This document shows, in pieces, positions 1,698 to 57,459 of a stretch of 64,000 nt of DNA (positions are counted from its first letter, which is position 1; the number at the start of each line of letters is the position of its first letter). The translations under genes and the position numbers were made by a program. The DNA is from a virus, in IMG/VR virus record IMGVR_UViG_3300014208_001418. One strand, 5' to 3'. The notes under the pieces were generated by a model that saw nothing but the letters and a program-made list of their open reading frames with translations, had not been told where the DNA came from and did not search any database.

Positions 1698-1733
1698 TTT
1701 ATATACTATTCTCTCTTATTAGTAGTAGTAGCA
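1698..1733 (+). promoter_or_regulatory. TATA + AGTAGTAGTAGCA promoter
   Basis: TTTATATACT 1698-1707, exact 13-mer 1721-1733, ORF at 1771. Confidence 0.8.
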
Positions 1734-1770
1734 AAACATAAAACTATAAATAACACAAAGGAATAGAAAT

Positions 1771-2334
1771 ATGAATACAACAAACCTAAAACACGCTCAA
1801 ACGGTGATATCATATCCTCTGATCGACAAATTCAATAAACCCCTAAGCAAAATAGTCTTATACTTAGGTGAAACATGTCCATCATGTCTAATTAAACCCT
1901 CAGCAGTTCCGCGATTAAAAATAAAACGTCCTGACGGAACTCTCGTCATTAACAAAGCAACAAAAACTGCAAATAAATACAAAGGCTCTTTTAGAGGAAA
2001 CCTTGAAGCAGAAATAAAAGAACTCTTGATCCTCTGTAAATGCACAATAGAAGCAGAATCTTATCTCTCTACTGCCTACGTCAGCAGTATTCGCAACGTT
2101 GCAGTATCCGTGAAAAACTCCAGTAAAAACTGGAAAGGTTCTTTCTCTTTAATTATCACTGGTAACATTAAAACTATCCGTGAAGATACTAAAAAAGTAA
2201 TCGACTTCCTTGATAATCACGGAGTAACAATAATCCAAACCTGTGATAATCATTGCTTGCCAATTGAAACATCCCAAGACCTCAACAAAGTAAAGAACTA
2301 CAAGACAAAGAACTCAAAGAACTCCTCAAAATAG
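1771..2334 (+). CDS. Hypothetical protein
   Basis: 187-aa ORF after a motif promoter. Confidence 0.7.
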   Translation: MNTTNLKHAQTVISYPLIDKFNKPLSKIVLYLGETCPSCLIKPSAVPRLKIKRPDGTLVINKATKTANKYKGSFRGNLEAEIKELLILCKCTIEAESYLSTAYVSSIRNVAVSVKNSSKNWKGSFSLIITGNIKTIREDTKKVIDFLDNHGVTIIQTCDNHCLPIETSQDLNKVKNYKTKNSKNSSK

Positions 2335-2343
2335 TGATCCGCT

Positions 2344-3168
2344 ATGTTCGAAATAGATGAAAATGCAATCATAAATGTAAAATGTAACGGCTTCTCTGAC
2401 AATGACAAAAAAAATATTGCAATGGAGCTTCCAGACATAACCTCTTATGATGAAACAGGAAACCTAATCCTCCACCTTCCCGCAACTACAAACCTAGAAG
2501 AGCTAACAAACAAAGTAATTCAAGCTTACGTTTCAGTTCTTAAAGACTTTTCGAAAAATGCCCTCTCCTCTCCTTCTTCATTAAAGCCATCTAATTATGT
2601 ACTCCCTGTTAGCACATTTGCTCAGAAAACCGAAACTCTAAAGTCAGAAACTTTTTTAAAAGACATAACACTAAAGATGGTAATGGATAGAATCCTCGAA
2701 GAGAAACGTCAAAATTTTCATGCACATGAATATATAGAAATTTTTAAAAGCGAAATTGATCCAAATCATACATCAACAAGACGTAAAATAGCAGGACGAG
2801 TCTATAGTTCCATAACTCAATTATTAAAAGCAAAAAAAATATTTGTTTCCGATCATCCCTCAAAGAGGGGAGGAAAAGGAGGGGGAAGATTCTATTCAGT
2901 AGATTTAAACTATATAAATACTTCAACTTCATCTACAACATCTTCCTTAATAACAAAATCAAATCCGATCAAAGATCGAATCTTAACAGATAATCTACCT
3001 TCCTTTCGATTAGAACATTACTGTTCCGAATCCTTTTGTACAGAATTCAATCTACCAAAAGAAAAAATATTTCAACAAGTAAGTTCCACTGTAAAAGCTA
3101 TGATCGATGAAAATCTTGTAGATAGATTTGGCAAGGAACTATATACAGTAAAGCTATATACTCAATAA
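2344..3168 (+). CDS. Hypothetical protein, possible winged-helix segment
   Basis: 274-aa ORF; basic helix plus GGKGGGRFY wing-like segment. Confidence 0.55.
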   Translation: MFEIDENAIINVKCNGFSDNDKKNIAMELPDITSYDETGNLILHLPATTNLEELTNKVIQAYVSVLKDFSKNALSSPSSLKPSNYVLPVSTFAQKTETLKSETFLKDITLKMVMDRILEEKRQNFHAHEYIEIFKSEIDPNHTSTRRKIAGRVYSSITQLLKAKKIFVSDHPSKRGGKGGGRFYSVDLNYINTSTSSTTSSLITKSNPIKDRILTDNLPSFRLEHYCSESFCTEFNLPKEKIFQQVSSTVKAMIDENLVDRFGKELYTVKLYTQ

Positions 3169-3227
3169 AACAACATATTCATCCTTTAGCGTTTTTCTTT
3201 TTTTTCTTATTTTTTCTAATCACAATC

Positions 3228-3254
3228 TTTATATACATTGTAGTAGTAGTAGCA
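3228..3254 (+). promoter_or_regulatory. TATA + AGTAGTAGTAGCA promoter
   Basis: TTTATATACA 3228-3237, exact 13-mer 3242-3254. Confidence 0.8.
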
Positions 3255-3335
3255 ATTAATGAATGCGATAATACACACATCAGACAACAACTTCAACATC
3301 CTCAAATACAAAAAAGAAGGCGACCCTGACTAACC

Positions 3336-3779
3336 ATGCGACCCCTCCATGACTCAATTCACAACTGCCTAGACTGCAACACCTATAAACTCTATAAACA
3401 GCCTTGCTCCCTATCTCCTCTCGTTACAGTCAAAGTCTGTAACCTTTGCACCACACGCCCCTGTTGTCTCTCCCCCATAGTTCCTCTCATGCCCTGCGAG
3501 CAAGACACAATACTTGACCAATTCGACCCCGCCACTGAAGAACTCCCACTCAAAGGAGGCATTCCTTTTAACATCATAACCAAATATTGCAAACACCTCG
3601 ATCCCTCCACGCTAAACTGCAAAGTTTATCCGATTCGCCCAATCGCTTGTCGCATAGCCTGTAAATCCTGCACCTCCCCCTTCTGGAAGAAAATGCTTCT
3701 CAAACGCCAATCCCGTTTAAATTCAGAACAAGATCCAAATCATAACCTAAAAACTCAAATACCCGAAGTGAAAACATGA
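3336..3779 (+). CDS. YkgJ/UPF0153-like Cys-cluster (Fe-S/Zn) protein
   Basis: CNLC...PCC and CKHLD...CKVYPIRPIACR pattern. Confidence 0.6.
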   Translation: MRPLHDSIHNCLDCNTYKLYKQPCSLSPLVTVKVCNLCTTRPCCLSPIVPLMPCEQDTILDQFDPATEELPLKGGIPFNIITKYCKHLDPSTLNCKVYPIRPIACRIACKSCTSPFWKKMLLKRQSRLNSEQDPNHNLKTQIPEVKT

Positions 3780-4992
3780 ACGAAAGAAAAGAAATAAGCC
3801 CAAAAATAACAGCCCTAGAGAATCGCCTAACAGACAAACATAAAGACATAATTGACATTCTATACGATTTCGCTCAATCACGAGCAACAATTTGTTCAAT
3901 CATTCACTTTAAAACAGGACGTAACCTACACTTGTCATCAGGATGCACAATTCGTTCCAAAACAGACCTCGACGACATACCATTTGCCTGTGCCTTAGCC
4001 TTCAAGCGAGCTAAAAAGAACTATCTTAGCTTCCTCAGAGAAACTGAACAACAACATAAGGAATAACTATGATAACCTGTTCACATTGTAAAAGAGAATA
4101 TACAAACCTTGACAATCTCCCCCTCAGACGATACGAAACTAACCAAGAAGTGAGAGTATGCATATGTGGATGGGAATTATATCAAGACTTATCCTTTGAC
4201 CGAAAAGCGAATCTCTCAAAAAAAGAAATAACCGATCTCGAAGCTCTCTCCATCCTAAAAAGTGGAATGCCTGACCTAAACGACCTTCAGCAAAAAGCAG
4301 TCAATAAAGCTATATACTATTTCAACTATTTCCATATAGGAGAAAAGCATGAACATAAAAGTAGATGACATCGTAAACATTCAATCATCCGAACCCAACA
4401 CTTTTTGGAAAGGCAAAGTCTATGAGATAGATTCAACGATAATTCCTGAAAAAGCTCTTGCATCTGTAAAAGCCTTATCAGGAAAAGGTCATGCTCTCGT
4501 CTATCAAAAAAACCTCGAATTCAAAGAAGGAGAATGGTGGGAAACAACCTTATGAAGTGCCAAAGCCTCGAATGCGATAACGAAACATCACTTCCAAATT
4601 CTCATTGTGATAAGTGTCTTGACGAACTCGGAGAGCTAATAGAAAAACATCCTATAAGCTTTATAGGTTCCTTTACAAAATCAAACAACATAAAATCTTC
4701 CTCTTCAATAATCGCTCAGCTCCAAACTCCAGCTATATGCTCCTCCTGCAATTCAGAAATTCCCTCAGGCACTACTATCTCTATCTCTCCCATCCTCTGC
4801 CCAAAATGCACCCACTCTCAAAACCTAACAGTCCAAGAAGTCATTTCCCTAACATCCCCCTCCGAACAAGAACGTCTATTTCCCCTCCTCAACTTTGACA
4901 ACATGCTCAACATCCCTGTCTATCTCCTAAACGCCGAAAACCCCTATTGCACCGAAATCGTATCAATCTGGAAAAACGTATGCAAACATTGA
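3776..4992 (+). CDS. Run of four small coupled hypothetical ORFs (3776-4066, 4069-4368, 4349-4555, 4534-4992), two with CxxC pairs
   Basis: Overlapping start/stop codons, operon-like arrangement. Confidence 0.6.
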
Positions 4993-5058
4993 TACTATTC
5001 TAAATACTATTTACTACTAATCACAAGTATTAAATACTAATAATTACTATCAGATACT

Positions 5059-5181
5059 ATGTTAAAAACAATGAAAATTGATGAAAAAACTCATGAACGC
5101 CTAAGTAATTATGGTCGTAAGAATGAAAGCTTCGATCAGATTATCAATAGATTGTTGGATGAAGTTGAAAAGAAGGAATAG
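5059..5181 (+). CDS. 40-aa RHH/VapB-like DNA-binding protein (not in ORF track)
   Basis: MLKTMKIDEKTHERLSNYGRKNESFDQIINRLLDEVEKKE resembles archaeal RHH antitoxin-type proteins. Confidence 0.7.
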   Translation: MLKTMKIDEKTHERLSNYGRKNESFDQIINRLLDEVEKKE

Positions 5182-5193
5182 GACTTATTAAAA

Positions 5194-9492: not shown

Positions 9493-9519
9493 TTTTTATA
9501 CTCTGTAGTAGTAGTAACA
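9493..9519 (+). promoter_or_regulatory. TATA + AGT-motif promoter, leaderless
   Basis: TTTTTATACT then GTAGTAGTAGTAACA; ATG at 9526. Confidence 0.7.
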
Positions 9520-9525
9520 ATCATT

Positions 9526-10026
9526 ATGTCTGAAGAAAAACTAAACCCTCATCCCCCTTCGGAAGAACTTTCTCATGAACCTCAAGACGAATCACTCCCA
9601 GAATACCCTCATCTCTCTGAAGCTATTGCAAAAGGAATCGAAGAAGGTTTTTTCTCCATAGTAAATAAAATAGTTATAGGTATAGCAATATATTTCGCAA
9701 TCGCATTTTTAATTATGGCGGGATTGTCACTTTATGACAAATATACTCACGATAAATGCATAGAACGCGGAGAATGTATTGATTATAGTAATGTAACTAT
9801 AGCATATTCTTCTTCTCCCGACTCATCATCTTCCCCTATCGCAAGAAATCAACCCATCTTATGTATTGTCGCTATCGGAAATTCCTCTTTCACACAAAAT
9901 ATTCTCCAATTTTCTGTACCCTCCTATACCGAAGCTAATGAGAAATACAAAACAATGCAGTACGAAATCAATGAAACCCTAACTGTTTCAGATTGGTATG
10001 ACAAAGGCTTAACATGTTCTGATTAA
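9526..10026 (+). CDS. Single-pass membrane hypothetical protein
   Basis: One TM segment at about aa 50-70. Confidence 0.65.
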   Translation: MSEEKLNPHPPSEELSHEPQDESLPEYPHLSEAIAKGIEEGFFSIVNKIVIGIAIYFAIAFLIMAGLSLYDKYTHDKCIERGECIDYSNVTIAYSSSPDSSSSPIARNQPILCIVAIGNSSFTQNILQFSVPSYTEANEKYKTMQYEINETLTVSDWYDKGLTCSD

Positions 10027-10841: not shown

Positions 10842-11072
10842 ATGAATACGTTCACATCAAACGAAAAGCGAATTATCAATCTCCTTTACGTATCCCGTAG
10901 ACCATTAACAACGAAACAAATATCAGAAAAACTCTCTATTTCATGGCAAACTGCAAAAGACACTCTCTTCTCATTACAAGACAAAAACTATTTAAACATA
11001 GACAAAAAAGTCAACAGAACTTATTGGTGGTTAAAAACAACAGATGAACAAAAATCATCACTAAAAACCTAA
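10842..11072 (+). CDS. Winged-helix transcriptional regulator
   Basis: LTTKQISEKLSISWQTAKDTLFSL HTH plus wing. Confidence 0.75.
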   Translation: MNTFTSNEKRIINLLYVSRRPLTTKQISEKLSISWQTAKDTLFSLQDKNYLNIDKKVNRTYWWLKTTDEQKSSLKT

Positions 11073-11082: not shown

Positions 11083-11115
11083 TTTTTATACTATCACATC
11101 TTAGTAGTAGTAGCA
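11083..11115 (+). promoter_or_regulatory. TATA + AGTAGTAGTAGCA promoter
   Basis: TTTTTATACT 11083-11092, exact 13-mer 11103-11115. Confidence 0.8.
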
Positions 11116-11156: not shown

Positions 11157-11813
11157 ATGCAATCTCTCACAAACAAGTACGAATCTCAACAAATAATCTA
11201 TCCACAATCCTTTATAGACCATTGCAAACGCTTATACCCTGACTGGATTAATCTCTACAAAGCAATCGAAGAAGGTTCTCCTATCGTAGTCAGCTATCTG
11301 GATGATGCAAGCGTAACTCCTATCTCTCCTGAAGAACTTCTCTCTTGCACCACTCTTGAAGAAGTTCATGCAAAAGCCAATCTCCTCCTAGAGAAAATCA
11401 AACTCTATGAGCAATCCCAACTCATCGTTACATCAGAGCGACAACACTTCTCCTCTCCTCATCTCGCACAGGAACACATATCATTCTAAATTATGAACAA
11501 CAAACTTCAAGCAAAGCGAAAAAGAGTTTCCTCTTTTAAAATAATTTATCCTCCTGATTTCATTAAATCCTGCAAAAAACTCTACCCCCATTGGAAAAAT
11601 CTTCACACCGCAATAGCAAAAGGTTCTCCCGCAGTAGAACACCTCTTCAGCGATGTTGTATCATCAGGATTCTTAACTCCTGAAGAAGCTATCGAAATTC
11701 CTACTATCGAAGAAATCCACGACCGAGCTAAAATCTATATGGAAACTCGTAGACTATTCACAGAATCAGCATATATAATCTCCAAACAAATGGAGGAAGA
11801 GTCTAAACTATGA
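11157..11813 (+). CDS. Two tandem paralogous hypothetical proteins (11157-11489, 11493-11813)
   Basis: Shared IIYP-FI-CK-LYP-W-NL-AI-GSP and EE(V/I)H-(K/R)A. Confidence 0.75.
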
Positions 11814-12501
11814 AAAGAGGAAGAAAACCCAATCCAAAACCTATTCATACTCCTACACCTATAAAGCTAATCGACCACATAAAATCCCTCAGACATCTCT
11901 CTCGCCCTTCAATTCCTCCCTCTCTTCCTATCCACACAAAACACAGAAATCAATTAACCAAACGTCAGCAAGCTCAAATCTCTCGAATTCAAAAATCATC
12001 CCACTCATCATGAAAACTAATCTAATCCTTAAAAATGTCTGCGATACATGCCTTTACCGCATAGATGAATGCCATTCTACTAGACTTTCCCTAAATCTCG
12101 ATCCTGAAGTAGAATGCACAGACTACCTCAAAGACCCCAGCACCCCAACTTCCATCCCTCTCCCCGATTACGTCCCTCCTGACGAAAAAACTCTATCTCC
12201 TGAGGAAGAATTTCTTATTTACAAAGAATGCTTTATCAACTATCTTTCATCCTTCCTAACCCAGTTTGCTAACGAAGTCACTAATAAACCCCTAACTCCC
12301 ATTCAAAAACTTCGCCTACGTGGCCTCCTTGAACTCGATTCCCATGCTCTCCTATTCGCTATTCAACACGGCATTCACCCAATAACAGGATGCAAATGGG
12401 ACATAACCAATCTCCGTTCCAAACATAAACTCAACACTCTCATCAAACGAAATAACAACATGATAACATACTTAAAAGATAATCAGGAGCATCATAGATG
12501 A
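11810..12501 (+). CDS. Two coupled hypothetical ORFs (11810-12013 basic; 12010-12501)
   Basis: ATGA overlaps. Confidence 0.55.
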
Positions 12502-13187
12502 ATTCAAATAAAAAAGTATTTTTAGAAATGTACCCTACGATACAGGGGGAAGGAGAAGACATCGGAAAACTAGCACTTCTACTAAGAACTTTCCAATGTA
12601 ATTTAAAATGTGAGTGGTGTGACACTAAGTTCTCATGGAATGAGAAACCAAAATTCTCTTCAGACGAAGCAATTGAATTCATAAAAACCAATCCTGCTTA
12701 TAATCTCATTATATTCAGTGGCGGGGAACCCCTGCTTCACCAAGACGAAATCGTCTACATCCTTAACACCCTAGAATCCCTATATCCAGACAAGTTTCCT
12801 CAATTTCGCTTCATAATCGAAACGAACTGCACTATAGCTCCTTGTATGGAACTCTACGAGATCATGCAATCTCAGGGAACATTTTCAGTCTCTCCCAAAT
12901 TTCACGCCCTCGACACTCTCATGATCAAAGCATTTGATTCTTTCCCAAATTCCTACTTCAAATTCGTAATCTCTGACCTTGAATCCGATATCAGCACCAT
13001 CCAACGCCTTTATTCCCAAAATATAATCACAAAACCCTTAACCATAGTCCAACCCAACGGAAACACACCTGATTACCTCTCTTCCTGTCGTTCCTTATGC
13101 GATTACATCATCTCCAACTCTCTAACCAATCTTCGCCCAATTCCACAATTCCACAAAATCTGCTGGCAAAATGCCCGAGGAAAATAA
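12498..13187 (+). CDS. queE: 7-carboxy-7-deazaguanine synthase (radical SAM)
   Basis: TIQGEG, CNLKCEWCDT, SGGEPLLH, IETN, SVSPK, FKFVI. Confidence 0.85.
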   Translation: MNSNKKVFLEMYPTIQGEGEDIGKLALLLRTFQCNLKCEWCDTKFSWNEKPKFSSDEAIEFIKTNPAYNLIIFSGGEPLLHQDEIVYILNTLESLYPDKFPQFRFIIETNCTIAPCMELYEIMQSQGTFSVSPKFHALDTLMIKAFDSFPNSYFKFVISDLESDISTIQRLYSQNIITKPLTIVQPNGNTPDYLSSCRSLCDYIISNSLTNLRPIPQFHKICWQNARGK

Positions 13188-15369: not shown

Positions 15370-15406
15370 TATATATACTATCCTCACATACTTAGTAGTA
15401 GTAGCA
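15370..15406 (+). promoter_or_regulatory. TATA + AGTAGTAGTAGCA promoter
   Basis: TATATATACT 15370-15379, exact 13-mer 15394-15406, GGTGAT RBS. Confidence 0.8.
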
Positions 15407-16435: not shown

Positions 16436-16472
16436 TTTATATACAATAAGCTACTATTAAGTAGTAGTAGCA
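16436..16472 (+). promoter_or_regulatory. TATA + AGTAGTAGTAGCA promoter
   Basis: TTTATATACA 16436-16445, exact 13-mer 16460-16472. Confidence 0.8.
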
Positions 16473-20292: not shown

Positions 20293-20335
20293 TTTATATA
20301 CTATCATTGTGTATGTAGTAGTAGCAGTAGTAGCA
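20293..20335 (+). promoter_or_regulatory. TATA + doubled AGT-motif promoter
   Basis: TTTATATACT then GTAGTAGTAGCAGTAGTAGCA. Confidence 0.8.
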
Positions 20336-23509: not shown

Positions 23510-23536
23510 CTTAAATACTATCAAGTAGTAGTAGCA
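23510..23536 (+). promoter_or_regulatory. TATA + AGTAGTAGTAGCA promoter
   Basis: CTTAAATACT, exact 13-mer 23524-23536. Confidence 0.8.
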
Positions 23537-23570
23537 GTACTCAACATTTCCCAATATCGGAGTACAAAAT

Positions 23571-24065
23571 ATGTATGAACCAACACCCGAAGACGAAATC
23601 CCATCCGTTTACCCATTACTTTCATGCAATAACGATGAATACAAACATACTACCTGCTTCCTCACAAACAAACCTTGTGATGAAGATGAAGAATGTCGAA
23701 CCTGCGAAATAGCTCGCAAAGAGAAACTCGCCGAAGCTGAAGAGCTTAAAAATCAAGAACGAGATACGCACACGATATTCAACAAAAGTCGTTTAATCGA
23801 CGGAGAACATCTACAATCAAATTCAGAAAATGTCATAGCTCTCGGTTCTCCTGTCACTATGAAACGCCTCCAGGACAAAAGTATATTCTCTTCTACCCCA
23901 AGACCGTATGATCCATTTTACCTGAAACAATATGCTAAAGAACTTCGAAAACTTCGAAAATATAACAACTTCCCAATTCCAGATGAAATCTATTCTGATA
24001 AAGACAAGCCTGCTGTCTTTGTATGGGGATCACTTCATTTCGTAATAGCTCCATACATAGAATAA
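23571..24065 (+). CDS. Hypothetical protein with N-terminal Cys cluster
   Basis: C...C...C...CxxC. Confidence 0.65.
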   Translation: MYEPTPEDEIPSVYPLLSCNNDEYKHTTCFLTNKPCDEDEECRTCEIARKEKLAEAEELKNQERDTHTIFNKSRLIDGEHLQSNSENVIALGSPVTMKRLQDKSIFSSTPRPYDPFYLKQYAKELRKLRKYNNFPIPDEIYSDKDKPAVFVWGSLHFVIAPYIE

Positions 24066-24202
24066 AAATTCAAAACCTTGCTATAATATCTTTACATATA
24101 TAGATTAAAAAACATAAATTTTAAATTAAATCTATATTTTAAATATATTTATAATTTTTCATTAAACTTAAATACTAATCAAACCTATCTTATTATACAG
24201 CT

Positions 24203-24655
24203 ATGAAACAGTCAGAAATACCATATTTAAAAAAGTCAACATTAAGCATGTTGCCGATAGCACAAGCAGAACTTCAAAAACGACTTAATATATCATCTCA
24301 AGATACCTCAGTATTTGTAAAAATTCTCCTGACAGAGAATATAGCAATTCGTGAGAAATCAAAAAAGGGAAGGGGTTTCTTATTAATATTAAATCCATCC
24401 CTAAATATAAACGAAGAACTCAGAAAAATAAACCTCAAAGAACTCGAACCAAACCTCAAACTATACCCGAAAACCACGAAGTTAAAAAAAGTGAAAAAGC
24501 TCAACCCTCCTAAATCCAAAACTCCCGAAGTACCAAAAGAGCCTCTTCGATATGCGCTCCTCAATTCCCTACATGCTTTTTCACCATGCACAGCCTGTAT
24601 CGAAACCTGCGATCCAAAATCATGCGTCACTCTTGACTCATGGGTAAGAGCATAG
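24203..24655 (+). CDS. TFEbeta/RPC34-like protein (wHTH plus C-terminal Fe-S cysteine motif)
   Basis: AQAELQKRLNISSQDTSVFVKIL HTH; FSPCTACIETCDPKSCVTLDSW. Confidence 0.7.
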   Translation: MKQSEIPYLKKSTLSMLPIAQAELQKRLNISSQDTSVFVKILLTENIAIREKSKKGRGFLLILNPSLNINEELRKINLKELEPNLKLYPKTTKLKKVKKLNPPKSKTPEVPKEPLRYALLNSLHAFSPCTACIETCDPKSCVTLDSWVRA

Positions 24656-24660: not shown

Positions 24661-24696
24661 TTTAAATACTTTCGAGTATTAGTAGCAGTTGTAGCA
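24661..24696 (+). promoter_or_regulatory. TATA + variant AGT-motif promoter with no downstream ORF
   Basis: TTTAAATACT, AGTATTAGTAGCA at 24675-24687. Confidence 0.65.
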
Positions 24697-24905
24697 AAAG
24701 GATAAAAGCGTATTTGCTATGTTGTGACCTAAATTTGTAACAGAAAAAAATGTTGATGTCGTTGCTGACGTTGCTGACAAATCTATAGCCTCAAAAGTCG
24801 AACCGCGACCAGCAACGACAATCACCCACTATCCACAATGGGGACAAGTACGAAAAGTTTGATTCACTTCATCATATTAACAGGTTTTAAATCCCTGTGT
24901 CCCCT
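24697..24905 (+). ncRNA. Candidate structured ncRNA
   Basis: 11-bp stem 24757-24767/24810-24820 and 7-bp stem 24840-24846/24898-24904 with nested hairpins; own promoter. Confidence 0.4.
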
Positions 24906-24940
24906 ATCACCTACTCATTTTCTCATCCTCAAACACAACC

Positions 24941-24967
24941 CTTAAATACTTTGAAGTAGTAGTAGCA
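24941..24967 (+). promoter_or_regulatory. TATA + AGTAGTAGTAGCA promoter
   Basis: CTTAAATACT, exact 13-mer 24955-24967. Confidence 0.8.
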
Positions 24968-24998: not shown

Positions 24999-26420
24999 AT
25001 GATATCACTACCAATTGTAAATCAATTTCTCATATGCGATAATGAGAAATTAGAACAAATTATAGATAAAAGAGACCTTACATCAATAACAATCTATTAT
25101 TCGCTCATAGGAAATGATGATAAAGCAAAAATATCAATAAACCGACCTGAACAAATGATAGATGGCTTTTACAATAGCAATCATATTAACGCAGTAAGAC
25201 AATTTCTATCATATCTCAAAATGGATTTCGCTTGTGATACTATTGCTAATAGTAAAAGCTATCCACTCATAATAAGAACAGGTAGAGACTTAAATTTTAT
25301 CATTCCTAATAGAAAACTTCAAACGCTAGAGACTATTCGCATAAAAGAGGCAACATAAAAAGGTAGCTAAAATGGAATTTCAAAAGAAGATTATTACCAA
25401 TATATTCCTGTAAAGAATGCAACTATAACGGAAGAGAAGTCATAAACAGAGATGACAGCATAGGGGAGAAAGGTCGATATACAACATATTGTACCCATCT
25501 TGCAGGAGAAACAATGACAATCAAACATGGAGAGACAGAAACCTCAGAACATTATATCTTCCCAAAATGGTGTTTACTAAAAGAGGACACACAGTAATAT
25601 GTCAACAAAAATTTATAACGGCTATTACCTAGACAAATGCTCCCTAGATGAGCTACAGTCCTTCACAATGTCTCTACGTTCTAACATATGCGAACTCCAA
25701 AAAAAGCTCTATGCGACTCAATTTCTAGCCGACTTAACTTCAATAATAGATAGCAAAGCTCTCTTTGACGCAAAGCTATATAGAAAAGAGAATCTTCCTA
25801 AAAACTTCTCAAAAATATGCGAAGATCCATACTTTCATGTCTATTACGACATCATGGAAAAATCATCTGAAATCGAAAAAACCAATAAACGTAATCCCGA
25901 TTACGACTTCACTTGCAACATGTCTATAATACCAACTCCCTCAAAAATCCTAGTTATGTTTTTCTCCGAGCAATCCGAATACACTTCTCTTTTCGAATCC
26001 TATCCCAACGTTCATCCCTATCCATATTTCAACAACACTGACAAACCTAAAGACACCTCTGAAGAAGAATGGCAACAGCGGGAAATAGACTGGAACCCCA
26101 TCCATATTCCCTCTATGTCAGGATTCACAGCACAGCTATCATATCCATATCTTCCCTTTATGAACATCTTCGAAATGCTATCCTTATCCTCTCCTCCATC
26201 CTTTAATAAACGTGTAAATCATCACCTGTCGAACATCATATTTCAGCAATATTTCTATCAAAACAAGATAAAACCCGACATGTACCACATCTATACCCAA
26301 CTCGAAACCGCAAAAGAATGGGCATCAAAAAACCTAATCAAACACAACATTCATAGAGATGTTTCCGCAACACTAAAACTAAAGCTAATAGCTTCAGACT
26401 TAGAGAAGCGTAACATTTAA
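24999..26420 (+). CDS. Hypothetical ORFs (24999-25358; 25599-26420)
   Basis: Long open frames with RBS-like sites. Confidence 0.65.
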
Positions 26421-26460
26421 ATACTATCAGGTAATAGTACAAACTACTCGAATAGTAAGC

Positions 26461-26508
26461 TAAAAAACGCATAAAAAGTAAAAAACGCATAAAAAGTAAA
26501 AACGCATA
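26461..26508. repeat. 18-bp tandem direct repeat, 2 perfect copies plus a partial third
   Basis: TAAAAAACGCATAAAAAG x2 then TAAAAACGCATA. Confidence 0.9.
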
Positions 26509-26828
26509 GCTAAAACCTTTCGAGCAAAAATGAACAAAACTAAACAAACCCTAAAAACAAAGGAGGCAAATGTTTAAGTCAATTCATAGAAGGTATGCAA
26601 TAATTAATTAATGCAGGCGATCAAAAACAAGGCTCATGAACAAAAGGGCGTTTCGGCGCCAATTCAGTAAACAAAGGAGGATAAATGCGTAGACCCTGCT
26701 GAGATAAGTTCACCAGAAAATACCTTTTAGCGAATAGAAAACCTTCTACACCCTGCGAGAGTTACCAAATCTTTCGCTCAATCAACAGATAGGTCTGGTG
26801 CGCCTATCGATCATCTCCTCAATTTCTG

Positions 26829-27239: not shown

Positions 27240-27276
27240 TTTATATACTATCCCCACGTATGTAGCAGTAGTAGCA
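27240..27276 (+). promoter_or_regulatory. TATA + AGT-motif promoter
   Basis: TTTATATACT then GTAGCAGTAGTAGCA. Confidence 0.75.
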
Positions 27277-32330: not shown

Positions 32331-32457
32331 AGAAATAAGAATTCGCCAGCTAATTATATATACTACAGCCTCAGAATACATCGAAAAGAATGACCTAAGA
32401 CCAAAAATAGGAAGAAAAGCAAGATTGAAAGACGTAAAATCTGATGAACAACTTTAA
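32193..32457 (+). pseudogene. tnpB: TnpB N-terminal fragment
   Basis: M*LTKKIRIF-(+1 T)-STPDQEEVLCYLSERCRLLYNFALAERR, typical OrfB HTH; stop at codon 2, frameshift, no RuvC domain. Confidence 0.75.
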
Positions 32458-32483
32458 ATACTAATCCAACATCTCTCAACACA

Positions 32484-34990: not shown

Positions 34991-35019
34991 TTTATATACT
35001 TAGTCGTAGTAGTAGCAGT
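34991..35019 (+). promoter_or_regulatory. TATA + AGT-motif promoter, leaderless
   Basis: TTTATATACT, GTAGTAGTAGCA 35006-35017, ATG 35020. Confidence 0.8.
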
Positions 35020-39254: not shown

Positions 39255-40558
39255 ATGGCATCAGTATTACAATTATGGACGGATAAAATATCATTAAAAG
39301 CACAAGCAGTTTTAATTAGTGCAATCAGAAGACCTGATGGTGTAAATGCTAAATATTCATCTGATATTGTTAGATGGATAAGAGCAAATACACTCAACGA
39401 CGGAAATGCTGGGAAAGGAGACTTTCTAAAAACAAACGATCTTCCTTCAGTTGAAGACAAAGAATTTCAAAAAGAATTTGTAACACTTTCATTGCACGCT
39501 GTTTTACATATTATTCATGCAGTAGAAGTCATAGGATATTGTCATCCAGATGAAGATATTCAAACAGCGGGCACAAACTTCTATACTGACATTTGCGATA
39601 TGTTTCATATGAATCATGAAGGTATAAACATTATGAAACTCAGACTTTCAGATGGAAATGTAGCAAATTGTTGGAAATAGTTAAGGAGCAATATTTATGG
39701 AAGAAGAAACTCAAATATCTCAAAACACCTTTGATAAGCTTGCAAGAAACAGCCTGCTTCCTGAAGAGATATGTGACAATGAAAGCAACAAAACCATTGA
39801 AGTCATAGTCTGCACTTCAATTTCAGGAGGAGCCCGTTATATCGATAATATGCCTGAAACTCTTGAACTTGAAAGAACTCTCGCAGATGGCAGGAAATTC
39901 AAAAAAAGATATATACAGGTGACGTTATGAACAACGAAAAAGAAGTTCCTATTTTTGTATCTTCATCTCCCAATCCTATAGATTCAAAAGACATAAACTA
40001 TATCATCATAGTCAATGACAGCCCCAATTTCGAAGTAGTCATAAAAATGAAAGAGTCAGTAGCTAAAGACCTCCTGCATAAGCTAATGCTCGAAATCGGA
40101 AAGAACAAAATCAACGTGGAGAATAAAGAATGATAGATAACCTAATTAAAGTCGTCCTAAGAGAGAACTATGATGTTCGCCACGAAGCCTTTTCCACAAG
40201 AGATTCATCAAAAGTCGATAAGAATGCTAAACAAAAAATAGTCGTTAAAAGCGCCTATACAAAGACAGGCCTATACATTGGAGATGAAAAAGATGCGATC
40301 AGATTGTTCAAATTAGGAATCGTTCCTGAATATGTCTCCAAATCCTCCAACGTATGCTCAATAGGATTTTGTGCTAAAGAACAGAAATGGTATGGATGGT
40401 CTAACAGAGCTATCGCAGGATTCGCTATCGGGGACATGATCTATGATCCTTTCTTTGGAAACGAAAACACTCCTTTCAATCAACATGGCTTACTAACAAT
40501 AAGGAATCTATCTGAAGCAAAACAATCAGCTATTAACTTCGCTGAGGATGTAAGTTAA
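39255..40558 (+). CDS. Four hypothetical ORFs (39255-39680, 39697-39930, 39927-40133, 40130-40558)
   Basis: GGAG RBSs, coupled. Confidence 0.6.
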
Positions 40559-42262: not shown

Positions 42263-42289
42263 TTTAAATACTATCAAGTAGTAGTAGCA
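42263..42289 (+). promoter_or_regulatory. TATA + AGTAGTAGTAGCA promoter, leaderless
   Basis: TTTAAATACT, exact 13-mer 42277-42289, ATG 42293. Confidence 0.8.
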
Positions 42290-47927: not shown

Positions 47928-47955
47928 ATCTTATCACCCAAGCATATTTCTATGC

Positions 47956-47990
47956 TTACTACTACTACTACCTACTACTATATAAGAATA
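47956..47990 (-). promoter_or_regulatory. Minus-strand promoter with expanded AGT repeats
   Basis: Reverse reads TTCTTATATAGTAGTAGGTAGTAGTAGTAGTAAGCA. Confidence 0.7.
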
Positions 47991-48161: not shown

Positions 48162-48661
48162 TCAACAATAAGCTTCTCTTTTCTCTCGAACTTCTTTTAA
48201 GTACAATATCGTTTTTTGTCTCATTATAATCTTTAGCTTCTTACCCCTTTCCCTCATGCTTACGTCTCCTGAATCTACGTATTTTTCGAACTCGAAAGTC
48301 TCGCTTGTAGCCTTACCGCTATCAAAACACTTGATAACACCTTCTATGATCTCACTATCGATCTCTCTATCTGAAAAAAGGAGATTTGACACGCTATACA
48401 TATCTGCAAAAAGTACCATTTTAATCACCCTCCTATGGGAAATAATCTACCTTTAAAAATCCTCATAAACTGCTGTTTTATGAATACGGGTTTCAAAGCT
48501 ATCTCTTTTTGAGGTATCCATGTTGGGCGTAATTGTTCTTTATTATTTAGAAATACATACCCGCTTTCCTCTTCAATTCTCCTCATCTCATCACGATATG
48601 AAAAAGATGACTCAAATTTGATGGGTTTATAATCTGATCTGTAATTATTAGTTGAAGACAT
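48162..48661 (-). CDS. Two small hypothetical ORFs (48162-48428, 48425-48661)
   Basis: GGAGGGTGAT RBS, coupled. Confidence 0.6.
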
Positions 48662-48834: not shown

Positions 48835-48870
48835 CACTACTACTACTACTACCTCAACATATATATAGTT
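48835..48870 (-). promoter_or_regulatory. Minus-strand promoter with five GTA repeats
   Basis: Reverse reads TATATATATGTTGAGGTAGTAGTAGTAGTAGTGC. Confidence 0.7.
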
Positions 48871-49956: not shown

Positions 49957-49983
49957 CTTATATACTTTTAAGTAGTAGTAGTA
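49957..49983 (+). promoter_or_regulatory. TATA + AGT-motif promoter
   Basis: CTTATATACT, AGTAGTAGTAGTA 49971-49983. Confidence 0.75.
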
Positions 49984-49984
49984 A

Positions 49985-51971
49985 TTGCTCAGGAATGAGC
50001 ATAACAAGAGTGACAATATGAATACAGAAATAGACGGACTCAAAGAAGTCTGCAAAACTGTGCAGACGGTAAAGAATGGCGAACAAGAAATAACCGTAAT
50101 CGAAAAGCAAATCGCTGATAAGATACGGGAGATCACCGCAAAGATTTTTGACGGCACGACAAAGTACCGAATGCCAAAACAAAATCTTGAAACTGGAATG
50201 AATGAAACAACCTCCCCTCCCTTCTGGGGATTTGGTATTGTCCTTCAAGACAATATTCAATTTGATGGGAATTTCTACGGAAATGCACAGACGATGAGAA
50301 TTGACATGAAAGGCCGTATCATGACGATATGGCAATATGTAGCAAGAAGTTCAGCTTATGACCTCATGACGGGAACACACACCCACATTGATCCACAAAG
50401 CCCGGATCCACGTCCATCAAACGATCATGAAATCGTTACACATGCACAGGAATTGGCTGGGGAGCTACTCGAAGCCCTGAAAACAAGAATCGATACGATG
50501 AAGAATGAAAAGGCAATATTACAGAAGATGGCGCAAGCTATCCTATAATTTCTGGGGCACTATAACATGAAACAAACAAGATATTGTAAAGAATGTGGGG
50601 AACCGCTTCTTGATAACGGCAGGGTGTTAGAATGTGATAATTATGATTCTAGCACTTATGAGGGAAAAGAACATGCGTATATTTCATATAACGTCCCTAG
50701 CATGTCGGATGATGAAAAAGCAGAAGCAATCGAAAGAATACGAACTGAAACAAGTGAAACAAACAGTTAATTTTTGAGGTGTCAAAATGAGCGAAATAAG
50801 AAAACTAAGCAGTAGGGACGCAAGCGATATTCTCACAAGAACAACCTACGATGAAGTCCCGGAAGGGTATAGAGGGGAAGTTTATATTGAAGAAGAAAAC
50901 GGCGAAGTGTTGGATAATTGGTTTGTTGGCTCTGGGGGTGCAGTATCCTATTCAGGCACGACACTGACTCTGGAGGACTGGAATAAGAAAGCAGAAGAAT
51001 AAAAATAGAGGTGTCAAATCAAAATATGATAAAAATATACGAGAATGGAAAAGTAAAAGAAGAAATCGAAGCGAATCAAGTCGATTGGTTACCTGATTCT
51101 AATTACGGCGGCGCATGAATCGGAAGCGAAAGGCTTTTGGGATGGGTTACAACTTCCGAAAACATCAGAGCGCCTATATGCACAGACGGAAGCGAAGCAT
51201 ACGGGAGTTATGATAACCCGTCTAGATTTGTGGAAGAGGAATAATTATTTTTGGAGGTGTCAAACAATGAAATACAAATGCGATAATTGCGGAAAGATAT
51301 ATAAAACCGTATCGGGAATAACAAAACACTGTAATGACTGCATACCAACTCCTGTATATTATGGTAGTGTCGGGTCTATGGGATGTACTACTGTTGATGG
51401 GGAATTTGCGCTGATTTTTGGATGGAGATAAGCAGTTTTAATTTTTTGAAGGTTAAAGATCGTGGAAACTACACCAAGAGAGAACAAAGAGGTAATTGGT
51501 AGGAATATTAGGTACTGATTCCGTAACACTCAAAGATGCGATTGAAATTATAAGGAAAACAAAGGAGAAATCATGCAACTAATACCTATACTGAAAAAGT
51601 ACCTTAAATCCCTTGAAAATGAAACTATCCCTGCGATAAATATTTCTTTTCGAAAAAGAGATCCTGAGCTGAGAGAGCTATTCGAAGACTTCTTACTATA
51701 TTTTCCTCAAAAGATTGGAATAGTTTATTCGAAGGATAATCAGCAGGTTCAGAATCAGAAAATATCAGCTAAATTGGGATTTTCTCCACAGTATTATGCA
51801 AATCGTGGCTCAGAGAATTATCGAAATGGAATATGGGGCTTTGAGTTACAAGATGAGGATTGCAAAAGCTACTTCATAATCTATAATTCCAAAAAGGGTA
51901 TGCAACTTGATTGTCGTTACGATGTAGACATAATATGCCTGAAGAAGTTACTAAGAGCTTTAAACGAATAA
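49985..51971 (+). CDS. Run of hypothetical ORFs (49985/50018-50548, 50567-50770, 50787-51002, 51573-51971)
   Basis: Co-oriented, GAGGTG RBSs. Confidence 0.55.
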
Positions 51972-52003: not shown

Positions 52004-52032
52004 TTTTTATAGTATAAAGTAGTAGTAGCAGT
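52004..52032 (+). promoter_or_regulatory. TATA + AGTAGTAGTAGCA promoter, leaderless
   Basis: TTTTTATAGT, exact 13-mer 52018-52030, ATG 52033. Confidence 0.8.
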
Positions 52033-52737
52033 ATGAAAAGAAAATCTAATCGTATAGTGTCAATTTTATCGGGAGGGATGGACAGCACTACGCTAACTTA
52101 TGATTTAGCATTGTCTGGAAATGAAGTTTTTGCTATCAGCTTTAATTACCAGCAAAAACATGTTCGAGAACTTGAATGTGCTAAGGCAACATGTAAAAAA
52201 CTTAATATTCCTCATAAGATAGTAGATATAAGCTCTATCAGCTCCATTCTCCAGGGAAGCTCATTGACATCTCCTGATATTCCAACTCCTCATGGAAAAT
52301 ACGATGAAGAGAACATGAAACAAACAGTCGTTCCTAATCGTAATATGATTATGATCAGCTTAGCTACTGCTTATGCTATCAGCATAGGAGCAACTGAAGT
52401 TTATTATGGAGCCCATGCTGGAGACCACGCTGTGTACATGGATTGTCGACCTGAATTCGTAAGCAAACTCCAAGAAGTAATCAAAATATGTGACTGGAAT
52501 AAAGTAGAACTCAAAGCTCCATATCTTAATCTTGACAAAGGAGATATCGCAATTATAGGTAAGATGCTTCACGTAGACTATGAAAACACGACTAGCTGTT
52601 ATGAAGGCAAAGAAACCCCTTGTTTAAAGTGTGGAAGTTGTGATGAACGTATAGGAGCATTTATAAAAGCAGATATGAGAGATCCTATAATAGATGAATA
52701 TAATTGGAGCAGAATATTAAAAGAGAAAGTACTATGA
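52033..52737 (+). CDS. queC: 7-cyano-7-deazaguanine synthase
   Basis: LSGGMDST, VPNRNMI, DCRPEF, SCY...CLKCGSC. Confidence 0.92.
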   Translation: MKRKSNRIVSILSGGMDSTTLTYDLALSGNEVFAISFNYQQKHVRELECAKATCKKLNIPHKIVDISSISSILQGSSLTSPDIPTPHGKYDEENMKQTVVPNRNMIMISLATAYAISIGATEVYYGAHAGDHAVYMDCRPEFVSKLQEVIKICDWNKVELKAPYLNLDKGDIAIIGKMLHVDYENTTSCYEGKETPCLKCGSCDERIGAFIKADMRDPIIDEYNWSRILKEKVL

Positions 52738-54619: not shown

Positions 54620-55354
54620 ATCAGTAACAGGAGATAACAATGTTAAAATCAAAAGAAAAAATAGATCCTGAACATCTGAGCATTAATCAGATAATAGCTT
54701 TCGACAAGTTACCTGATGATAGGTTGAAAAGCGAATACGAATTCTCTGATTCGACGATATCAGACATTCATAGAATGACGAAATCAATAATGGGATAAAT
54801 ACTTAGGTGCTATGACAAAAATCGATCCGATTGATATAAAGGTATCAATACTAGTAATAATTATGTTGATCGCGGTTTTGAAAATTGCATTATGATAAAA
54901 GAGAGAGGAGATGATAAGCAATTGAAGAATAGGTTGCTCATCATCTCATATATGACATCATATTGTATTTGAACTAATATGTATTAAGTCTTTTTGTGAT
55001 AGTTCAGGTTGCTTGATATTGTAATAAGTCTTTCCTCAACTTATTTTTAATTTAATTATAACTCTTTCCATTACATTTTTTTAATGTATAAGGGTATATT
55101 GAGTAGAAAAGTGAAGTCTTTGTAGACTCATCAGAGTAGGTTTTCGTCTTTGACGAGAACAGGAACGGTGAGGGCTCTTGCAGAGCTTGGGTATCGAAAA
55201 ATGCAAGCACAAGATACCACACGTTATTCTTAAATGTTTATATTGCCGTAAGATTGCACCTGAATATTTTTTTGAAAAAAAGTTAAACGAATATTGCATG
55301 TATAACTTATTGCCTGATACTATCTATTTATTCTTTACAGATTCACATTTGCTA

Positions 55355-56629
55355 CTAGCTTATTATTTTGCACCTGGGAGGGAGAACACGAATAATATGA
55401 TTATCTGAAGGCATAAAAATCATATCTTTTATTGTTACCTTAGCAAATCCCGCTCCAAATAATGGTTGTCCATTTCCCAACGTAAAATTATTAACCGTTT
55501 CAATAACTAATGGCGTTCCCTTATCATCTTCTATTCCTAACGGCACCTGTTCTTTTTTCTGATAAACATATATCCTGAAAATCCCCTCACTCCTACCGAC
55601 CACATAATGCATTTGACTCAAAGCACTCAGCATATTCTTAGCACTATCCTTACCGAAGAAACTGCTAGCCTCCTCTATCCCTATAACAGGCTGTACATGC
55701 AAATTCGTAATCAACCTATGACAGATAGCATTGATCATATTAATTAATATCCCTTTCGTTTGAATATCATCGGGACCTGCTCCGCTCAAATTAAATACAA
55801 AGAAATCTCCACCTATTCCCGGTCTTCTTGGAGGATGCATAAGCGTAAGAACATCATTGCCTACATCAGCTAGTACCCCTAGCTTCACTAAGCTATCAAT
55901 CATCATTAAAAGTGCATCTCCACTTCTCTTAGCCCCTGATAGCTCATCTTGGTTAGCCTCTATCTCCGCCTTCAAACTCCCAATCGTTATCTTTCCGTCT
56001 CTCTTCCTGATAACTGCCATGATAGCATCAAGCATATTTACATAACCCCTATTTTCTGTCTCCTTCTGCCCAAGCATTAGCAATCCCGAAGGATCGACAT
56101 CGTTTATTCCCATTTTCCAAGTATCCGTATAATTATAATTCGCCATACAGTAATCTTCTCCCCATCTATCTACAATGTGACTTGGCAAAAAACATTGCAC
56201 TTTAGGAACTCCTCTCGGAACTTCTCCATACCTATTCAAAATCTCAATATGCTTCGGGTTATCATTTGGCATATACGCCAACTTATACTGATTCTTAAAA
56301 TCAAAAATAGTCTGACTCCTGCTATACTGGAAACTCAATTCACTATGTATCCTTGCTAAGCAGGTCGATTTCCCGCTCCCTGATCCACCAAAAATCAGCA
56401 TAGCAGGTTCATGTTCCCTACTATCAAATGGTAAATAAAAAGGACCTAATTCCTCCCCCGTAATGGGATCCAAATCAATACCCAGCTTAATAAATCTTGG
56501 TGGGTCAATCATTAATTTATTATTCTCTCTCACCTCAGTCATATTTTTTACAAAACTAGGTCTCTTTACTAACCTTCCCGAAAGAGGACTTCTTGCTCCA
56601 CCTAATCTAGCCCTAAATAATTGTGTCAT
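55355..56629 (-). CDS. HerA/FtsK/VirB4-superfamily P-loop ATPase
   Basis: GGSGSGKST, IFDFK, Walker B IGIEEA. Confidence 0.7.
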   Translation of the reverse strand: MTQLFRARLGGARSPLSGRLVKRPSFVKNMTEVRENNKLMIDPPRFIKLGIDLDPITGEELGPFYLPFDSREHEPAMLIFGGSGSGKSTCLARIHSELSFQYSRSQTIFDFKNQYKLAYMPNDNPKHIEILNRYGEVPRGVPKVQCFLPSHIVDRWGEDYCMANYNYTDTWKMGINDVDPSGLLMLGQKETENRGYVNMLDAIMAVIRKRDGKITIGSLKAEIEANQDELSGAKRSGDALLMMIDSLVKLGVLADVGNDVLTLMHPPRRPGIGGDFFVFNLSGAGPDDIQTKGILINMINAICHRLITNLHVQPVIGIEEASSFFGKDSAKNMLSALSQMHYVVGRSEGIFRIYVYQKKEQVPLGIEDDKGTPLVIETVNNFTLGNGQPLFGAGFAKVTIKDMIFMPSDNHIIRVLPPRCKIIS

Positions 56630-57429
56630 TTAGTGTTCACGTCTCCAAATTCTCTCATTGTCGGTTTCATCCTAGTTCCTCTTCCTATAAACCTATTGTT
56701 ATTATTCTGTTTCCACCAATTAGTTCCATTTGCATATGGAATATTATCCTGAAAACTATCATCTCCCCCCATCGTACCCACTCCTCCCATATCTCCAGCT
56801 CCCATATCTGCTCCTCCATCAAAATCTCCGCCCCCCATTCCTCCTATATCATGAGGATTTTCCCTAGCGGGAGGAACAATTACTAAATAATTTCCAGCAG
56901 ACGTTAGCGTTCCTATAATCCTGCTTATCCAAATATGAATAGGCTTCAAGTAATAATCAATCACAGGCTTCGTAATATAATATTCATCATTCCTTGCATG
57001 TACTATGGCAAATCTTCTATTCTGTTCCTCATTCAAACTCTCTTGAAACTTCACGATCAAATTTTTTATATAATCAAAATTAGGAGTTTGATCTCTACCA
57101 AAATCAATATAATTCTTCAAAAAGATACTCGATTCCGATATTAGCTCATTCAACTCTCTCATCTCGCTCATATCATCTAATACTTCTTTCGGTACCTTGA
57201 TCCTATATTTACCAGCCACTAATTCAGGTCTCAGCTTCAACAACTTCGAAAATTTATCCTGCACTTCCCTTAATTCATCACCGACATCCCCAAACATCTC
57301 CTGAATCTCTGCTCTAGCCTCTTCTTCCTTCTTGTCATATGCAGATTGATCTTTTCCTGTTTCTTCCTCAGATTCACTCTCTTCCTCTGTTTCTTCTTCA
57401 AGTTCAAATTCTTCTTCTTTTTCTGTCAT
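56626..57429 (-). CDS. Acidic hypothetical protein coupled to the ATPase
   Basis: Probable leaderless start 57429 (MTEKEEE); Glu-rich N-terminus, Gly/Met/Asp-rich C-terminus. Confidence 0.7.
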   Translation of the reverse strand: MTEKEEEFELEEETEEESESEEETGKDQSAYDKKEEEARAEIQEMFGDVGDELREVQDKFSKLLKLRPELVAGKYRIKVPKEVLDDMSEMRELNELISESSIFLKNYIDFGRDQTPNFDYIKNLIVKFQESLNEEQNRRFAIVHARNDEYYITKPVIDYYLKPIHIWISRIIGTLTSAGNYLVIVPPARENPHDIGGMGGGDFDGGADMGAGDMGGVGTMGGDDSFQDNIPYANGTNWWKQNNNNRFIGRGTRMKPTMREFGDVNTK

Positions 57430-57433
57430 AAAT

Positions 57434-57459
57434 GATACTACTACTTCCAAATATATAAA
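57434..57459 (-). promoter_or_regulatory. TATA + AGT-motif promoter, leaderless
   Basis: Reverse reads TTTATATATT-TGGA-AGTAGTAGTATCA-TTT-ATG. Confidence 0.7.

Follow-up and report, generated by a model that had tools for sequence, protein, structure and literature searches.

The window analysed here, a stretch of 64,000 nt from IMG/VR virus record IMGVR_UViG_3300014208_001418, is part of a 148,445-bp circular metagenome contig and carries, behind the TATA boxes of many of its promoters, a short triplet-repeat motif that is the subject of this analysis. The contig can be taken as circular because loci L010 and L012 have coordinates that continue across its ends, with a k-mer overlap of 141 nt from the assembly; a JGI contig of 148,431 bp is near-identical to it. 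The source is groundwater metagenomes, and the sequence is present in two DNA runs from two studies; two further DNA runs of the same study are listed, with none of the element's words in them. The window was stitched to 10 kb on each side from the same contig, so that 84 kb were analysed. Recognisable genes encode QueC, three radical-SAM proteins, Tmk, a DEAD helicase, a GHKL ATPase, a salactin-like actin, a HerA-like ATPase, YopX, the N-domain of GmrSD, a small integrase, LAGLIDADG and HNH endonucleases, an IS607-type unit and a homologue of Tad6. No capsid or terminase was recognised among the large downstream proteins with PHROGs and the Atlas, and virus-like element is therefore the safe name; the label 'virus' rests on YopX, Tad6, an integrase and the homing endonucleases.

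The motif has the general form (A)NGT-AGT-AGT-AG(C/T)-A, with two to six repeat units. The exact 13-mer AGTAGTAGTAGCA occurs in nine copies, all on the plus strand (1721, 3242, 11103, 15394, 16460, 23524, 24955, 42277 and 52018), against an expected count of zero in 100 dinucleotide-preserving shuffles. Near-variants are found on the plus strand at 9507, 20314 (a double copy), 24675, 27264, 35005 and 49971, and on the minus strand at 47960–47972, 48835–48853 and 57433–57445. The original prediction, made from the letters of the window, had named the same nine exact copies and had placed the variants at or within a few nucleotides of these positions; we add a degenerate copy, GGTAATAGTACAA, at 26430, where the spacer is identical to that of other sites, and a tenth exact copy that lies outside the window, 8.6 kb upstream. 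Allowing up to two mismatches, and counting the degenerate copy, the window has 19 distinct sites, 16 on the plus and three on the minus strand, which brings the total to about 20 sites in 84 kb. The 10 kb downstream of the window, which hold large surface- or structural-type genes, contain no copy. The core GTAGTAGTA is present 17 times in the 84 kb versus about 0.3 times expected under a second-order Markov model, and it is the most frequent intergenic 9-mer, above every TATA-box 9-mer. In agreement with the claim that the motif avoids coding sequences, none of the 17 core copies lies in a credible one. All sites are intergenic, share the orientation of the downstream gene and stand behind an archaeal promoter box. 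The last two motif positions, which were left free in the search, score 1.6 and 1.7 bits, compared with at most 1.1 bits for any TATA position; the ten core positions, NGTWGTAGTA, were set by the search pattern and their 2-bit scores are thus no measure of conservation.

The claim that every site follows a TATA box holds as well. Upstream of all 19 sites lies a box with the consensus ACAAC-CTTTATATA-CT, in which an A/T-rich TATA octamer is immediately preceded by a purine-rich transcription factor B recognition element (BRE); promoters that lack the motif have this box too. The promoters with the motif fall into two spacing classes. In the short class, comprising 12 window sites, the 13-mer NGTAGTAGTAG(C/T)A begins exactly 6 nt past the TATA octamer. 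This is the 4-nt gap past the TATA decamer that had been described for ten sites: ten sites start with AGT, and together with two GGT-started sites on the minus strand they make 12. In the long class (seven window sites) the gap is 12–16 nt past the octamer, that is, 10–14 nt past the decamer, and the association of this longer gap with leaders that carry a Shine–Dalgarno (SD) sequence is likewise upheld. Long-class promoters have in common an unstructured SD-led leader, CTACAARGTGATAAtatATG, and short-class promoters are either leaderless or followed by a leader that starts with a hairpin of 6–8 bp. At the predicted 5' end of SD-bearing short-class leaders, the hairpin has a z-score of −2 to −3 in five of seven cases; such leaders lie at 23537–23570, 47930–47958 (minus strand) and 49984–50010 of the window and, in related elements described below, at L001:8731–8752 and L003:7825–7846 (minus strand).

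Leaderless genes allow the motif to be placed relative to the start of transcription. In the motif promoters of the confirmed genes tmk and queC, whose Pfam alignments start within the first 13 residues, the start codon lies 22–26 nt past the TATA octamer, and the same distance is seen at the motif-less promoters 77, 32484, 57571 and 59864. This spacing fits the archaeal TATA-to-start distance of about 22–27 bp. By this geometry the motif is predicted to lie upstream of the start site in the short class, covering about −16 to −4, and across it in the long class, where it would cover about −8 to +6. The proposal that the motif occupies the initially melted region is supported for the short class, and the long class lies across the predicted start site instead. 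Of the six leaderless ATGs originally proposed, those at 9526, 35020, 42293, 52033 and 57429 stand; the one at 3259/3260 opens only a 24-codon open reading frame (ORF) out of frame with the gene at 3336–3779. This ORF (3259–3333), which follows the motif at 3242, ends just 2 nt short of the start codon (ATG at 3336) of the 147-aa gene and may be a leaderless upstream ORF. We also considered a bacterial reading, with TATACT as the −10 box and transcripts starting from the AGT repeat, which would imply SD-less leaders of 15–19 nt. It was rejected: there is no −35 box and the BRE-like block is conserved, and the reading is further countered by the ATGs located 22–24 nt past TATA at motif-less promoters and by the archaeal-looking gene content.

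All long-class promoters lie on the plus strand. The one at 1698–1733 has a 15-nt gap between the TATA octamer and AGTAGTAGTAGCA, and an SD-led leader to the gene at 1771. At 11083–11115 the gap is 12 nt and the promoter heads an operon (11157–13187) with a radical-SAM gene. Gaps of 16 nt are found at 15370–15406, where the leader is CTACAAGGTGATAAtatATG, at 16436–16472, and at 27240–27276, where the variant AGCAGTAGTAGCA precedes a gene at 27299. The promoter at 20293–20335 (gap 13) carries the double motif TGTAGTAGTAGCAGTAGTAGCA and heads a 61-aa ORF and the GHKL ATPase gene at 20575; the rIIA label given to the latter in the original prediction is not borne out beyond its Hsp90-like GHKL ATPase domain.

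Short-class promoters on the plus strand begin with 3228–3254, where the gap is 6 nt, the repeat run starts with TGT at a gap of 3 nt and the next gene is the one at 3336. The promoter at 9493–9519 has the variant AGTAGTAGTAACA and a leaderless gene at 9526, that at 23510–23536 has a leader starting with a hairpin and a gene at 23571, and that at 24941–24967 serves a gene at 24999. Two others open ORF-less stretches. The promoter at 24661–24687 (variant AGTATTAGTAGCA) has no downstream ORF and could give a non-coding transcript to about 24940, and the short-class layout at 26416–26442, which contains the degenerate GGTAATAGTACAA and the spacer ctatca also found at 23524 and 42277, is followed by about 380 nt without an ORF. 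Both stretches (24661–24940 and 26416–26828) are possible non-coding RNAs, and Rfam gave no match anywhere in the window. The relative L189 has a matching ORF-less layout (L189:10337–10540) behind its homologue of the 24203 gene, and a 3' block, GGTT(T)TAAATCCCnTGTnnCCCnATCACC, is common to both elements. Further along, the promoter at 34991–35017 (CGTAGTAGTAGCA) drives the leaderless tmk at 35020, and the row of genes behind it includes, at 40130–40558, a gene clearly homologous to Tad6, a Thoeris inhibitor of phages (Pfam E-value 2.6e-34). The promoter at 42263–42289 precedes a leaderless 75-aa gene at 42293, that at 49957–49983 (AGTAGTAGTAGTA) is followed by a hairpin leader, and that at 52004–52030 drives the leaderless queC at 52033. 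On the minus strand, the promoter at 47960–47986 (GGTAGTAGTAGTA) has a hairpin leader with a GGTGAT SD sequence and serves the operon that runs downwards from 47927 and includes a radical-SAM gene, the one at 48841–48867 has an extended run of six triplets and a gene start at 48661, and the one at 57433–57459 (AGTAGTAGTATCA) heads a leaderless 267-aa gene (ATG at 57429) and the HerA-like ATPase operon. The labels tmk, queC and ATPase assigned to the motif-headed operons are substantiated, and thyA has no support from Pfam or the PDB.

The motif is confined to part of the promoters. At least 14 good TATA promoters in the 84 kb lack it, versus 20 sites that have it; those without include 77, 10115, 58014, 22745, 24203, 32484, 57571 and 59864. 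Motif-less promoters head surface-type proteins (PEGA/Big_9, CBM and Laminin_G) and also all four recognisable small DNA-binding proteins. Promoters with the motif head the ATPase operon and operons concerned with nucleotide metabolism and DNA modification, as well as the row of genes containing the Tad6 homologue, many small unknown genes and the two ORF-less stretches. The earlier suggestion that exported and membrane genes lack the motif is correct for the TATA promoters at 77, 10115 and 58014; directly upstream of 23149 and 30276, which had been cited in the same way, we saw nothing promoter-like. Collectively, these sequence data support the view that the motif marks a subset of promoters, a putative regulon, of an archaeal-type mobile element rather than a general promoter style, as the original prediction held.

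To follow the motif in related elements we used homologues of QueC, the ATPase and the 24203 protein, through which a JGI contig of 184 kb, NCBI contigs from metagenome-assembled genomes, and Logan and ENA contigs were reached; a protein search for relatives in IMG/VR, GTDB and JGI found none beyond one JGI contig. The relatives' contigs are syntenic with the window and their ATPases are 52–72% identical to that of the window. Six element segments contain 42 sites, or 44 together with L008 and L184, and the gap is exactly 6 nt in 25 of the 44, or in 27 if the window's own 3242 and 9507 are counted. Across the elements, gaps of 3, 6, 8 and 12–16 nt occur. Positional conservation in relatives (L001, L003, L005, L008, L184 and L189) is seen at the orthologous promoters of the ATPase operon, queC, the 85-aa gene and the 22745 gene. 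The ATPase-operon promoter keeps the TATA-N6-motif arrangement in the window, L001 and L005, and has the form GTTGTAGTA at gaps of 7 and 10 nt in L008 and L184; the spacer and flanks differ in all of them while the motif stays. Several promoters of L005 and L189 carry this variant form, L008 and L184 have it once each, and the window and L001 do not use it at all. The queC promoter is of the short class in the window; in L003 the motif has moved to a gap of 3 nt, and in L001 an inverted copy, AGTGCTACTACTA, occupies the corresponding 13-bp slot. L189 has one long-class site, with a gap of 13 nt. We also sought orthologues of the GHKL ATPase gene, in order to test the long class, and found no direct homologues; the region was reached through the 24203 homologue of L189. 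Promoters without the motif are likewise retained: no motif is present at the divergent promoter that serves the 85-aa gene in the window, L001 or L005, nor at the 22745 promoter in the window or L189. Conservation in relatives of the split between motif and motif-less promoters is thus supported at the sequence level.

Outside this family, a pattern scan of GTDB species genomes gave at most one match per stretch, mostly bacterial, among the at least 120 matches listed, and a scan of IMG/VR gave single matches apart from one virus group with a local array. In contigs of this group (L139, L141, L144, L153, L156, L161 and L172), at least three copies of ATACTATATAGTAGTAGTA lie within about 300 bp. 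The G+C content is similar to that of the element and the array has a TATA-N-(AGT)3 look, at a single locus in genomes of 55–135 kb; the cluster may be an origin or a small-RNA array. These contigs have no ATPase homologue, and we treat the group as unrelated.

Four small DNA-binding proteins can be considered as candidate trans factors. The best-conserved candidate is an 85-aa winged-helix protein (57571–57828, plus strand), a family core gene that is divergent from the ATPase-operon promoter and has a motif-less promoter; every relative that has this region encodes it, and the fold of its Atlas model is Fur/BlaI-like, with a predicted local distance difference test score (pLDDT) of 0.83. The second is a 150-aa winged-helix protein (24203–24655, plus strand), also with a motif-less promoter, which has a C-terminal four-cysteine motif (CxxCxxxCxxxxxC) and a homologue in the same position in L189. 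It has no Pfam or PDB sequence match. In language-model feature space it is nearest to archaeal winged-helix clusters with the Pfam domains B-block_TFIIIC and RNA_pol_Rpc34 (scores of 0.90–0.91, with 182–191 shared features), and feature scores of 0.90 arise by chance in 4–10% of shuffled proteins; its Atlas model is poor (pLDDT 0.56) and has structural likeness to generic MarR-type domains. The other two are a 76-aa winged-helix protein (10842–11072, plus strand) with weak HTH_11/TrmB-like matches, encoded just upstream of the long-class promoter at 11083, and a 40-aa ribbon-helix-helix (RHH)-type protein (5059–5181, plus strand) that is DUF7557/VapB-like. A tandem C2H2 zinc-finger reader, which would contact 3 bp per finger, was rejected, as the proteome has no such array. 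Upstream of the RHH gene, at 4990–5020, TTACTACTAA comes after the TATA-like CTAAATACT; it is a partial copy of the motif core in inverted orientation and may be due to chance. Homologues of the 24203 protein are also found in an element with no motif in 5–7 kb (L186 and L187), and in L186:4861–6247 a 111-aa TFIIB-cyclin-like protein is encoded two genes upstream of one of them, which hints that mobile elements of these archaea carry genes resembling those for basal factors.

Judged by its conservation, the motif is predicted to work in cis, because its free positions outscore the TATA box and it persists while its surroundings diverge. The reading we favour, to which we give an even chance, is that it is a regulatory operator in about 20 BRE/TATA promoters that are co-regulated by one factor, with repression the likeliest outcome. 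A motif that is confined to some of the promoters, differs in position from TATA to +6 and is inverted in one copy argues for a protein acting on duplex DNA and not for a basal or RNA element. Under the operator hypothesis, a single sequence-specific factor would bind double-stranded DNA at all sites; it would probably come from the small winged-helix and RHH proteins that the element encodes, each of them expressed from a motif-less promoter, and it would co-regulate the operons for nucleotide metabolism, DNA modification, anti-defence and the ATPase. The footprint of TATA-binding protein (TBP) together with transcription factor B (TFB) is expected to adjoin the short-class motif. The sites coincide with DNA that RNA polymerase has to engage and open, so polymerase would be blocked after TBP and TFB have bound, resulting in repression, which could serve to shut off an early or middle class of genes or to silence them in a carrier state. 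The factor, its origin, the sign of regulation and its timing are all things that we infer. Repression is slightly favoured over a positive role by analogy, since the motif lies where cellular archaeal repressors and viral RHH repressors act.

Among cellular archaeal repressors, MDR1, LrpA, Phr and TrmB/TrmBL1 have operators between TATA and the start site or across the latter, such that TBP and TFB bind and polymerase recruitment is blocked; these operators are mostly palindromes for dimers, whereas the motif is a direct triplet repeat. In viruses, the RHH promoter-occlusion model places operators between TATA and the start site (PMC5569661). A related design is that of the SSV1 repressor F55, which binds tandem-repeat operators (ATAGATAG) overlapping the start site or BRE and silences early transcripts (PMC5569661). 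Both systems have short tandem direct repeats in or next to promoters, bound in SSV1 by a small viral repressor, and by geometry the short repeats of our element overlap the TATA-to-start region as F55 and RHH promoter-occlusion operators do. However, F55 operators consist of 11-bp units in pairs at four promoters, including that of F55 itself (PMC5569661), whereas the putative operators described here have 3-bp units at about 20 promoters and none at the promoters of the candidate regulators.

Virus-wide promoter sequences have precedents too, and the original statement that no such archaeal promoter element is known was wrong in kind: the HF2 repeats, the SIRV2 early-gene sequences with Aca8, the SIRV GTC motif and the F55 operators all precede it. 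The class I and II intergenic repeats of HF2 are virus-wide blocks that combine BRE/TATA with a conserved start-site block, one class heading early-middle (replication and nucleotide) genes and the other morphogenesis genes (PMC8707807). HF2 and the present element are alike in having a virus-wide promoter-attached sequence whose position and sequence are conserved in related viruses. Nonetheless, HF2 is a haloarchaeal tailed virus with composite blocks of 58 and 29 bp, mapped start sites and tested activity (PMC8707807), while in this unrelated, uncultivated element, known from its sequence, only a 13-bp triplet repeat is common to the sites, which have variable spacers and two spacing classes. 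In SIRV2, a virus-specific consensus surrounds a strong BRE/TATA core in many transcription units and marks early and anti-defence genes, and shut-off by the small virus-encoded winged-helix protein Aca8 has been proposed (PMC11065993). Here the likeness lies in the Tad6 homologue in the gene row behind a motif promoter and in the winged-helix candidates; family, host and sequence are different, and a discrete repeat between TATA and start replaces a consensus around the core. No Aca8 homologue was found among the proteins run through Pfam, and no search aimed at Aca8 was made. Finally, a GTC motif downstream of TATA in SIRV1 and SIRV2 (Kessler et al. 2004, as cited in PMC5569661) appears, from that citation, to be similar as a short virus-specific word just past TATA in most promoters and a proposed cis-regulatory element whose reader is not known. 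As cited there, it differs in being a single trinucleotide in most promoters, whereas ours is a tandem repeat of 3–4 units at an exact spacing in about half of the promoters.

Several observations weigh against the operator hypothesis. Autoregulation is typical of repressors of this kind, and the promoters of 24203, 57571, the RHH gene and the operon with 10842 are all without the motif. The main case for a positive element comes from the short class, whose exact 6-bp spacing is stricter than occlusion alone needs and would fit a stereospecific contact with the initiation complex. Moreover, the conserved start-site block of HF2 is needed for basal promoter activity (PMC8707807). The motif may also reflect a host factor or the promoter style of the host, and the run search found no RNA run with the element's DNA.

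The positive interpretation can be put in several ways. One, possible but in our judgement unlikely, is a core-promoter strength element, read by the B-reader/linker of host TFB, by transcription factor E (TFE) or by the RNA polymerase clamp, which would mark strong or early promoters without a dedicated regulator. The 6-bp spacing, exact at 12 of 12 short-class sites of the window and kept in most relatives, would be expected of such an element, the interval from about −16 to −4 is the location of the proximal promoter element known from Sulfolobus and haloarchaeal promoters, and the long-class repeat supplies a T-A or T-G step every 3 nt at the predicted start site. Furthermore, mutation of the HF2 start-site block abolished reporter activity (PMC8707807), and the SIRV2 early-gene sequences hold a strong core promoter (PMC11065993). 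A basal element, however, should be fixed in place and orientation, so that the 6–10-bp shift of the motif in the long class, the −3 shift in L003 and the inversion in L001 count against it: the rule is kept inside the short class (25 of 44 sites have gap 6) and broken by the gaps of 12–16, 3 and 8 nt and by the inverted copy. Neither do motif-less promoters have a poorer BRE/TATA box or a different leaderless geometry, and direct reading of the sequence shows the motif to be no richer in A+T than the same region in these promoters. The matches listed from GTDB, at least 120 with at most one per stretch, also fit poorly with a host element. Alternatively, the repeat could be read in the to-be-melted region by a private promoter-specificity factor, an element-encoded protein resembling a basal factor that would activate a class of promoters like a phage sigma or late factor. 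Its candidate is the 24203 protein, said to resemble TFE-beta/Rpc34. This is improbable in our estimate, despite the proximity of the protein to B-block_TFIIIC and RNA_pol_Rpc34 clusters, its four cysteines, the short-class promoter that comes directly after its gene in both the window and L189, and the precise short-class spacing, which would suit a factor docked in the initiation complex. The chance level of the feature scores, the lack of Pfam and PDB matches, the poor model with its MarR-type likeness and the homologues in L186 and L187, with no motif in 5–7 kb, all speak against the assignment. In addition, the long class across the predicted start site and the inverted motif of one relative argue against a reader of one strand at a fixed position in melted DNA. 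A two-step programme, in which the 24203 protein would dock and read the repeat at −16 to −4 and the same factor would repress the long-class sites, seems to us just as improbable.

Two further explanations were considered. If TATA-spacer-(AGT)n cassettes had spread by duplication, the triplet run could be a slippage-prone microsatellite without a function of its own, and indeed the number of units varies from two to six and the long-class promoters share their leader sequence, as duplicated cassettes would. Yet spacers and flanks have fully diverged while motif and spacing are kept, both among the window's 19 sites and at orthologous promoters of elements whose core protein is 52–72% identical; there are no copies outside promoters, and the last two motif columns are better conserved than the TATA box. 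We therefore regard a passenger repeat as very improbable. A still more remote prospect is that the repeat forms the 5' end of the transcript and acts in the mRNA, on stability or translation or through a triplet-reading RNA-binding protein. In the long class the predicted start lies inside the motif, so that its 3' part would be transcribed, and UAG triplet repeats are bound by some RNA-binding proteins. The inverted motif of one relative argues against this, and for the short class geometry led us to reject an RNA-level role: the motif ends 2–6 nt before leaderless ATGs that are 22–26 nt from the TATA octamer, and it would therefore not be transcribed from that promoter.

The principle of a virus-wide promoter sequence is already known; what is new is the direct-triplet-repeat word, its exact placement 6 bp past the TATA octamer, the existence of a second spacing class and the family of elements itself. 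Among archaeal viruses, only a few cultivated ones of Sulfolobales and haloarchaea have known transcription programmes, and the motif represents a conserved cis-code in an undescribed family of large (148–184 kb) groundwater elements. The two promoter classes sort mostly unannotated genes and so provide a first functional map, in which small motif-driven genes may, by analogy with SIRV2, be flagged as having a possible anti-defence role. With its 13 bp and exact spacing, the site offers a ready probe for its reader, and a direct triplet repeat beside the TBP/TFB site would be an unusual operator design that could reveal interplay between a regulator and the initiation complex. Should the 24203 protein turn out to be a specificity factor, the element would be an archaeal virus with a private promoter class comparable to those of phage sigma or late factors.

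Two minor observations were also made in the window. The motif-less promoters at 24170–24202 and 32450–32483 have CTTAAATACTAATCMAAC in common and possibly form a second promoter subclass. Furthermore, the plus strand of the window (1–64000) is strongly C-rich over G, with a GC skew down to −0.57; the skew is also negative across minus-strand genes (46–48 kb and 56–58 kb) and is positive at 50–54 kb only. Such a pattern seems to reflect replication or mutation more than coding; the element carries genes of the 7-deazaguanine pathway (QueC and radical-SAM proteins).

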